64,000 nt of DNA, from positions 1-64,000 of the forward strand of contig CANRCF010000034.1 in assembly GCA_947629045.1 (NCBI GenBank). Reading direction: 5' to 3'. This DNA is from an uncultured Clostridia bacterium. Lineage in GTDB: Bacteria; Bacillota; Clostridia; TANB77; CAG-508. The position numbers were made by a program, and so were the translations under genes. The notes under the pieces were generated by a model. The model searched no databases, was not told where the DNA came from, and was given only the letters and a program-made list of their open reading frames with translations. Positions 31,211 to 31,372 of the stretch are shown piece by piece. Positions within the stretch are counted from its first letter, which is position 1; the number at the start of each line of letters is the position of its first letter.

Positions 31211-31372
31211 AAAACTGAAAATATTATGTTTTTTTGCACTTTGCTGTCGCAGTCTTATTATGTAATAAATTTAACAATTTATTACATATATAAGTAGACT
31301 GCTCCAAGCGCACTTCACTCCGTTCCGTTTGAACGCTGCGCAGTGCTTCTAAAACATAATATTTTCAGTTTT
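31211..31372. repeat. Structured GC-rich repeat element, copy 1: nested inverted repeats flanking a conserved 41-nt GC-rich core
   Basis: Outer IR ACTGAAAATATTATGTTTT/AAAACATAATATTTTCAGT, inner IR GCACT..GCAG/CTGCGCAGTGC, central 12-bp palindrome ATGTAATAAATT/AATTTATTACAT. The core GCTCCAAGCGCACTTCACTCCGTTCCGTTTGAACGCTGCGC recurs reverse-complemented at about 59625. Confidence 0.6.

Follow-up and report, generated by a model that had tools for sequence, protein, structure and literature searches.

What is the GC-rich, hairpin-forming element that lies in an intergenic spacer of an uncultured Clostridia bacterium? We explored this question in a 64,000-nucleotide stretch of DNA (contig CANRCF010000034.1, positions 1 to 64,000, hereafter the window), which holds one copy of the element between a DUF378 gene and an ABC-F gene (W1) and a second between recF and gyrB (W2). 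The element is real and non-random, and represents a new, narrow family of structured interspersed repeats that lies outside any named family. It is unusual in its fixed core with free but paired stems, in its modular reassortment and in its very fast turnover at gene ends. We put the chances at about even that it is a non-autonomous hairpin repeat akin to bcr1 and REPINs, specific to its lineage, which acts at the DNA level and is recognised as a folded single strand.

Architecture of the element and its family

W1 occupies positions 31210–31373 of the forward strand (164 nt, 108 bits with our covariance model, R1) and is built of nested inverted repeats, at the place where an earlier, sequence-only reading had seen a structured unit (31211–31372). 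All 23 bases of the 5′ arm of its closing stem, P1 (TAAAACTGAAAATATTATGTTTT, 31210–31232), form Watson–Crick pairs with the 3′ arm (AAAACATAATATTTTCAGTTTTA, 31351–31373). The outer inverted repeat had been read as 19 bp; it is perfect over 22 bp (31211–31232 with 31351–31372), or 23 bp with T31210 and A31373. Inside P1, a 5-bp stem that was absent from the earlier description, P2, pairs GCACT (31236–31240) with AGTGC (31342–31346). The conserved joiner that follows, TTGCTGTC (31241–31248), includes TGC at 31242–31244, which can pair with GCG at 31338–31340 as an extension of P2. The third stem, P3 (31249–31302), consists of GCAGTC/GACTGC (31249–31254 and 31297–31302) around an AT-rich hairpin module. 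The inner repeat previously given as 11 bp does exist, but as GCAGTC/GACTGC plus imperfect pairs, and the supposed central 12-bp palindrome is a hairpin with 13-bp perfect arms (31259–31271 and 31276–31288) and a 4-nt loop. A conserved GC-rich 3′ segment, TCCAAGCGCACTTCACTCCGTTCCGTTTGAACGCTGCGC (31303–31341), is 95–100% identical across the four copies that we term standard and contains a small hairpin, P4 (CGTTC-CGTTT-GAACG, 31321–31335), which the a- and c-type copies described below retain with one C bulged out. The 41-nt core (GCTCC...GCGC, 31301–31341, forward strand) has a G+C content of 61%, compared to 25.7% for the window.

Both neighbours of W1 are encoded on the reverse strand, the DUF378 gene at 31433–31660 and the ABC-F gene at 29511–31091. 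W1 therefore lies downstream of DUF378, not upstream as first reported, and upstream of the ABC-F gene, with its core antisense to both. The fold of W1 has z-scores of −11.6 and −12.0 on the two strands relative to shuffled sequences.

As the sequence-only reading had claimed, the core recurs reverse-complemented between recF and gyrB. This second match (59625–59665) has one mismatch; two core matches are thus present in the window against 0.00 expected from 100 shuffles. This second copy, W2, is a compact element on the reverse strand (59593–59718, 126 nt, 91 bits), sense to both recF and gyrB. It begins 4 nt past the recF stop codon (59723–59725) and ends upstream of the gyrB promoter. Read on the reverse strand, its P1 pairs all 21 bases of the 5′ arm TAATTAAAAATATGTTAACTT (59698–59718) with the 3′ arm AAGTTAACATATTTTTAATTA (59593–59613), its P2 pairs GCGAC (59688–59692) with GTCGC (59620–59624), and its P3 is GCAAC-ATAAAT-GTTGC (59664–59679). 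The fold z-scores are −7.6 and −7.1 for the two strands. The closing stems of W1 and W2 are the two longest inverted repeats in the window at a spacing of up to 250. No third copy was found in the window by profile search, fuzzy motif search or a covariance model with filters off.

The possibility that only these two copies exist had been raised at the outset, but there are at least 11 across strains: seven different full copies and at least four truncated ones, every one of them from a strain of a single uncultured Clostridia species of the rabbit gut. Loci and copies from other contigs are referred to by L numbers. The elements are non-coding, intergenic and 100–165 bases long, and they share a common plan. 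P1 is AT-rich in all copies, 17–23 bp in length, and its strand starts with an A-run and finishes with a T-run. A small internal loop, TT on the 5′ strand and TAC, TTAC or TTCT on the 3′ strand, separates it from P2, a GC-rich stem of 5 bp that comes in four types, all Watson–Crick (GCACT/AGTGC, GCACC/GGTGC, GTGAC/GTCAC and GCGAC/GTCGC), and that can be lengthened, past one mismatch, by three pairs, TGC/GCG. The joiner is conserved in the family, with the consensus TTRYTGTC. P3 differs in sequence in nearly every copy. Its loop holds the added AT-rich hairpin module in three copies, and the module is missing from the four compact copies (W2, L020a, L041 and L002b); its appearance suggests a nested insertion or a loop that can expand. 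The module reads TTATGTAATAAATT...AATTTATTACATA at window positions 31255–31296, about 1627–1672 of L001 and about 2314–2359 of L002. After P3 come TCCA, the GC-rich segment with P4 in the form CG(C)TTC/GAACG, an RCGC end, and the 3′ strands of P2 and P1.

The 3′ segment occurs in three types: standard, TCCAAGCGCACTTCACTTCGTTCCGTTTGAACGCTGCGC, in W1, W2, L001 and L002; a, TCCATACGCGCTTCGCTTGRACGCTACGC, in L020a and L002b; and c, TCCAAACGCGCTTCGCTTAGAACGAATATGCGC, in L041. Relative to the a type, the standard type has an additional tandem ACTTCACTTC and differs by a few substitutions. Within the standard copies, the 39-nt segment is 95–100% identical, compared to 20–80% for P2 and 29–94% for the P1 arms (ungapped), and the seven full copies have seven distinct arm sequences. 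The description of a conserved core with variable flanking repeats thus continues to hold once the further copies are included. The usual pattern is reversed in this family, the core being fixed and the paired ends free but perfectly matched.

Covariation of the stems and the RNA reading

We measured covariation in an alignment of six full copies that covered the inner six pairs of P1, P2 with its extension, the base of P3, and P4. Standard pairs filled 92.5% of cells, compared to 30–52% when the 3′ partners were slid by 1–3 columns, and both sides had changed in 11 of 20 pairs, compared to 1–2 in the slid controls. None of 500 shuffles reached the observed values of pairing or covariation. 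The P2 extension covaries, C–G in standard copies being T–A in both a-type copies (TGC/GCG versus TGT/ACG), and P4 is kept across copies but without covariation. A covariance model built from the six copies recovered the seventh full copy, L002b (L002 4133–4220, 72 bits), which has novel P1 arms and perfect stems. This discovery is an independent confirmation of the common plan. Since the stems covary, pairing either matters or is actively restored, and the strength of the covariation indicates that the folded single strand matters.

The pairing is almost exclusively of the Watson–Crick type. Across all stems of the six copies, 224 of 233 manually assigned pairs are Watson–Crick, there is no G–T pair in P1, P2, P3 or P4, and G–T recurs only as the invariant pair with which the P2 extension begins. 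In L002b, an A-to-G substitution creates a wobble in P4 on the core strand, and two A–C mismatches in L041 would be wobbles only if the opposite strand were read. Folding z-scores range from −5 to −12 over the copies, with both strands folding equally well.

Such a pattern raises the question of whether RNA or DNA is the folded species. The element may be transcribed within the transcript of the upstream gene, with the core folding into a functional RNA; we regard this as doubtful, yet deserving of serious attention. Ribozymes and riboswitch aptamers likewise have stems that covary around conserved junction nucleotides, and the P2 extension both covaries and holds its invariant T–G pair on the core strand, where the P4 wobble of L002b also falls. 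The strong folding z-scores are in keeping with this idea, and the perfect 17–23-bp stem would probably be a good substrate for RNase III. This closing stem could be an RNase III-type processing stem that frees an RNA of about 80–120 nt, or the core could be a novel motif that cleaves itself or binds protein. However, wobbles are nearly absent in more than 200 pairs, the L041 mismatches point to the opposite strand, and the two strands do not differ in their ability to fold. The scarcity of wobbles disfavours slow compensatory evolution at the RNA level and favours pairing at the DNA level, where it is most likely set or corrected.

Searches for known RNA families and signals add to the points against a structured RNA. 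At the gathering score, Rfam identified only tRNAs in the window. When W1 and W2 were searched at E-values up to 10, the best matches scored 11–20 bits against thresholds of 48–100, with nothing credible among them, and the variant copies gave no match at E-values up to 1. No promoter or terminator conserved at the element was found. The promoter scan is uninformative in DNA of 26% G+C, and a consensus terminator scan gave no sites in 31000–31700 or 59400–59900, where the T-runs lie within P1. The suggestion of a structured small RNA, made in the sequence-only reading, has the covarying stems in its favour, and the lack of an Rfam match and of conserved transcription signals and the near absence of wobbles against it.

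Several other candidates were considered. By inspection, the copies do not share the short open reading frames (ORFs) that overlie the element, and we rejected a small peptide. Folds resembling the HDV ribozyme, the hammerhead or a tRNA, sought by eye on both strands, were rejected since the pairings that they need use independently varying segments. The operator motifs CIRCE, LexA, Spo0A, CodY and cre match one copy at best.

Distribution and turnover between strains

A scan of 185,579 species-representative genomes with a 20-mer of the core matched three contigs, all from one metagenome-assembled genome (MAG), the rabbit-gut 'uncultured Clostridia bacterium Lapin-022 bin14'. This MAG is about 96% identical to the window, with values of 93–97% over dnaN-recF-gyrB, and is therefore of the same species. 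It holds at least six copies, and the 64-kb window two. No copy was found in viral contigs in three scans, and BLAST against phages returned AT-rich noise only. In JGI metagenomes, a 24-mer had no matches and a three-block gapped pattern had four, all chance matches in GC-rich coding DNA. About 100 kb of sequence of sister species (ABC-F 90–94% identical, DNA 74–86%) contained no copy by profile or covariance model. The large collections were scanned with exact patterns, the genome scan using the standard core only. Within the reach of these searches, the family is restricted to a single uncultured Clostridia species of the rabbit gut. This restriction counts against a structured RNA, since known ribozyme and riboswitch classes are widespread.

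Sequence similarity to plasmids suggested a further origin, as a remnant of a plasmid replication signal, either a ColE1-type origin or a single-strand priming site. A 23-nt stretch of the core exactly matches the 1065-bp Haemophilus somnus plasmid AF318175.1 (L009 401–423), inside a large hairpin, and the pUC/ColE1 origin contains the blocks GCTCCAAGC..GCAC..CCGTTC..CGCTGCGC in the order that they have in the element. However, the E-value of the 23-mer is 0.09, and the hairpin is conserved in small Pasteurellaceae plasmids but the matching bases are not, so we judged that the match is probably due to chance. The pUC similarity, checked on the real sequence, was rejected as well: the target was chosen after the fact, and 1–5% of shuffled cores were as good. 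We consider descent from such a signal extremely improbable.

The element is caught in active turnover among strains that are 96–99% identical. At a given locus it may be present, absent, inverted, truncated, or recombined into a mosaic. In the DUF378/ABC-F spacer, the window and three other contigs hold W1, antisense, and the MAG and three further contigs hold a full a-type copy followed by a truncated standard copy, both sense. The truncated copy is without all sequence 5′ of the middle of P3. This spacer is hypervariable throughout. Downstream (3′) of the truncated copy, at L020 1377–1425, lies AAAAAAATATTATAATTT, which matches the 5′ arm of the upstream a-type element at 17 of 18 positions and is also complementary to the 3′ arm of the truncated copy; a different AT-rich hairpin lies at the same ABC-F-proximal position in L025 (1345–1430). 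In sister species, the two alleles of the spacer that were read (L014–L017 and L018) are without the element, and L014–L017 have an ordinary terminator hairpin after the DUF378 gene, where the species of W1 has the element.

This correspondence raises the idea of a mobile hairpin that resembles an intrinsic terminator, or stabilises mRNA in the manner of SPRITE or REP sequences, with ending or protecting the upstream transcript as its main role. The position of the element just 3′ of stop codons fits, as do arms that start with A-runs and finish with T-runs. Nevertheless, the terminator scan was empty in both regions, the T-run lies within the stem, and the stem closes over 60–120 nt. Moreover, alleles of recF-gyrB and L001 that lack the element do so without any terminator, and a terminator would have no need of the conserved 39-nt core. 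We find this explanation hard to credit.

The recF-gyrB spacer has five alleles within the species: a full standard copy (the window); a full c-type copy that has different arms (L041/L042); a standard copy that is truncated and has L041-type arms (the MAG, L003); a truncated, decayed copy with window-type arms (L043); and no element, with recF ending inside the gyrB promoter (L046). The spacer is thus remodelled by the element and by deletions. Five different C-termini of recF occur within the species, ASQI, IRLNA, KIKF, IRSV and VACKS (window 59723–59760, L003, L041, L043 and L046). L043 and L003 have an identical left junction, GGTAATAT|TCGTT, and different right halves; because this junction is exactly common to both, the two alleles have recombined. 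Parts are also exchanged among other copies: W2 and L002b have P2 and P3 in common but differ in core type and arms, and L041 and L003, although their core types differ, have the same P2 3′ strand, 3′ arm and flank.

Deletions occur often around the element, and long perfect inverted repeats are expected to provoke one-sided deletions through palindrome instability. In the four truncated alleles, which stem from two or more events, and in a solo arm, it is the 3′ side that is kept. Truncated copies have decayed, with two substitutions in L020b, and a 5-nt deletion and a change of GCTGCGC to GCTTAAGC in L043; the core of the full copies is unchanged.

This record may also be read as that of palindromic debris with neither function nor mobility, in which template switching makes the repeats and keeps them perfect, and homologous or illegitimate recombination spreads the copies. 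The almost exclusively Watson–Crick stems, the mosaic alleles (the left junction of L003 and L043, and the P2 and P3 that W2 and L002b share around different cores) and the frequent deletions are all consistent with it, and template switching can yield perfect hairpins with 'compensatory' changes made in one step (PMC8794818). It leaves unexplained why an unpaired, GC-rich, 39-nt segment is 95–100% identical amid diverging surroundings, and why the same core is found at five or more unrelated intergenic loci. The changes found in truncated L020b and L043, but not in full copies, further suggest constraint on intact copies. We hold debris to be quite improbable.

The orientation of the copies is uneven. 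All seven alleles other than W1, full or truncated, are sense to their neighbouring genes, and four of the seven full copies begin 0–4 nt past a TAA stop codon. Both observations fit a structured RNA that acts in transcripts, against which stand the antisense W1 and the loss of copies at no obvious cost (L046, L030). The perfect arms could allow the inner part to flip by recombination, and the orientation of W1 could thus be explained. In Firmicutes, the sense orientation largely corresponds to the lagging-strand template, so orientation does not separate the RNA and DNA readings.

Precedents, proposed mechanism and wider setting

We compared the element to known repeat systems. The closest precedent is bcr1 (Group A bcr) of the Bacillus cereus group, the likeness being one of description. 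bcr1 is a non-coding, lineage-restricted repeat of about 155 bp that is placed differently in close strains, lacks a transposase of its own, and is predicted to fold into a branched hairpin that compensatory changes preserve (PMC3184786). The element is similarly lineage-restricted, is distributed differently between close strains and retains its structure by compensatory changes (both sides altered in 11 of 20 pairs, 92.5% of cells paired). bcr1 is known to be transcribed. It differs in its flanking 5-bp direct repeats, as the element has no consistent duplication, and the closing stem of the element differs almost completely between copies. REPs and REPINs are short, intergenic, non-coding hairpin repeats inherited within lineages, and RAYT, supplied in trans, is believed to act on them as folded single-stranded DNA (PMC3116915). 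A REPIN presents one conserved 20–40-nt palindrome twice, inverted, usually in hundreds of copies and with a RAYT gene flanked by REPs. In contrast, the element has variable paired parts, a conserved unpaired core and few copies, and no RAYT gene was seen among the 30 ORFs of the window.

The element resembles the miniature inverted-repeat mobile elements (MITEs; Correia/nemis, RUP), pneumococcal BOX and SPRITE in its 100–170 nt, intergenic position, hairpin potential and differences between strains. However, classical MITEs have terminal repeats conserved between copies, whereas here the P1 arms are 29–94% identical and the core 95–100%, the ends being where conservation is lowest. MITEs also have a target duplication of fixed length, whereas direct repeats here are 4 nt and AT-only in just two of seven copies and 0–2 nt in the rest, with no consistent length. 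Thus, the second identity offered by the sequence-only reading, a miniature inverted-repeat mobile element, accounts for the strain-variable presence, orientation and truncation, but the features that define MITEs are lacking. Terminators and SPRITEs differ in another way, since the element has no GC-rich, short-loop stem directly followed by an unpaired T-run. The attC sites and the ends of IS200/IS605 elements (PATEs) are folded single-strand DNA sites in which structure counts over stem sequence, with no target duplication and a replication-biased orientation. Unlike attC, the element has no consistent R″/R′ sites (RYYYAAC/GTTRRRY; seven arm pairs inspected), no cassette context and no integrase. 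Unlike IS200/IS605, it has neither paired end hairpins of like sequence nor TnpA, and neither system has a counterpart to the long closing stem. Retron non-coding RNAs have inverted repeats in common with the element, but no reverse transcriptase adjoins any copy according to the gene tables of the loci and Pfam.

We propose that a hairpin repeat acting at the DNA level would operate as follows. The folded single strand would be the recognised entity, with the stems serving as structure and the conserved unpaired core as a sequence-specific site for a factor supplied in trans; such a reader is needed because the unpaired core is conserved. Complementarity could be set in one of three ways: the hairpin may be recognised in single-stranded DNA during replication, one arm may be made from the other arm or from the flank upon copying, or template switching may keep correcting arm against arm. 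Template switching has been documented to create and maintain perfect hairpins, with 'compensatory' changes arising in a single step (PMC8794818). The element would spread to new intergenic sites, often directly past stop codons, would be transferred between strains by homologous recombination, and would decay as its hairpin provokes deletions. The host is probably little affected, gaining an extra hairpin at the 3′ ends of mRNAs.

A number of observations weigh against this proposal. Neither a mobilising enzyme nor an autonomous parent insertion sequence was found among the 30 window ORFs or the genes listed for the other loci, and the hits of the core 20-mer in the MAG were all small copies. 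Pfam identified no transposase, reverse transcriptase or integrase among those ORFs, and the gene tables of the loci examined list no partner gene adjoining the copies, whose neighbours are housekeeping genes. The target-site duplication is not consistent, and a classical end-binding transposase is unlikely because the terminal arms are not conserved. The copies are few, and the sense bias of the seven other alleles would equally fit an RNA acting in transcripts. Transposition was not observed, and recombination and deletion could in principle yield all of the polymorphism.

A difficulty that stands out comes from the L001 locus, the spacer between a deacetylase gene and trxB, where the MAG has 169 nt that are missing from two other strain groups. 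The element-free alleles, which read TTATTTAA|AAACATAATATTTTTAGAT, already hold the exact 19-nt 3′ arm of the MAG copy. The extra 169 nt comprise about 30 nt of AT-rich sequence, the 5′ arm, the core and TAC, and the 5′ arm is an inverted copy of the 3′ arm flank with one mismatch. This is not what is expected of the simple cut-or-copy insertion of a two-armed unit. Two explanations are possible. The 3′ arm may be target sequence, with the 5′ arm made from it or selected to match it, as the retention of the 3′ side by every truncated copy and the solo arm would suggest. Alternatively, the element-free alleles may be deletion products that retain the downstream arm. Near-identical arms at unrelated loci (W1 and L001; L041/L003, L020b and L002) speak for deletion, as do the frequency of deletions and an arm consensus that is not common in the window. 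As a target motif, the consensus of the two best-shared arm types, AAACWATAATRTTTTT, was rejected, being unenriched in the window (7 matches, 7.6 expected).

The first explanation can be extended to a templated build, in which a conserved unit (P2-joiner-P3-core-P2′-TAC) lands by a short A-rich sequence and its 5′ arm is either an inverted copy of the flank or a guide that pairs with the flank. This model, which we think unlikely, would explain the perfect but copy-specific arms, the exact 3′ arm in the element-free L001 alleles, the 3′ part kept by every truncated copy, and the lack of conserved terminal repeats and target duplications. If true, the templated-arm or guide step is an insertion mechanism undescribed for bacterial repeats, and a new structured RNA or single-stranded DNA core is possibly its active part.

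Bacterial genomes commonly harbour small, structured repeats of the REP, bcr1, BOX or Correia sort, whose propagation and function are mostly unknown. The family described here provides a test case for how hairpin repeats multiply and remain paired, whether selection on RNA, recognition of single-stranded DNA or template switching is responsible. It is equally a test case for the remodelling of gene ends by repeats, given a recF with five C-termini in one species. Should the core prove to be a novel RNA motif, or the site that an unknown enzyme recognises, its interest would rise sharply; otherwise it is one more lineage-specific repeat family.

Other features of the window were observed alongside the element. 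Downstream of the ABC-F gene, a Tex-like gene on the reverse strand is interrupted (29240–29400, with the remainder at 27205–28857). A 51-residue Tex_N ORF stops at ...GTAACTCGGTGGGCTTTCAGATGA, one base off the expected RKEVTGGLSDEV frame. Depending on the strain, the rest of the gene is called with 550, 567 or 678 residues, and sister species have a single intact gene of 731–732 residues. A pseudogene, a programmed frameshift and a shared assembly error would each account for the interruption. Close to the gene cluster of the replication origin, conjugation- and partition-type genes at 42903–44729 and 53020–56846 encode a TrwB-like coupling protein, a ParA-like ATPase, a TraG P-loop protein and a TraC-like protein, and in the sister-species contig L016 type IV secretion pilin and PrgI genes adjoin the CorA/DUF378 block. 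Finally, a 2454-residue ORF (13106–20470) lies beside a gene for an AMP-binding enzyme and two-component regulators, and the syntenic genes of the sister species encode non-ribosomal peptide synthetase domains.

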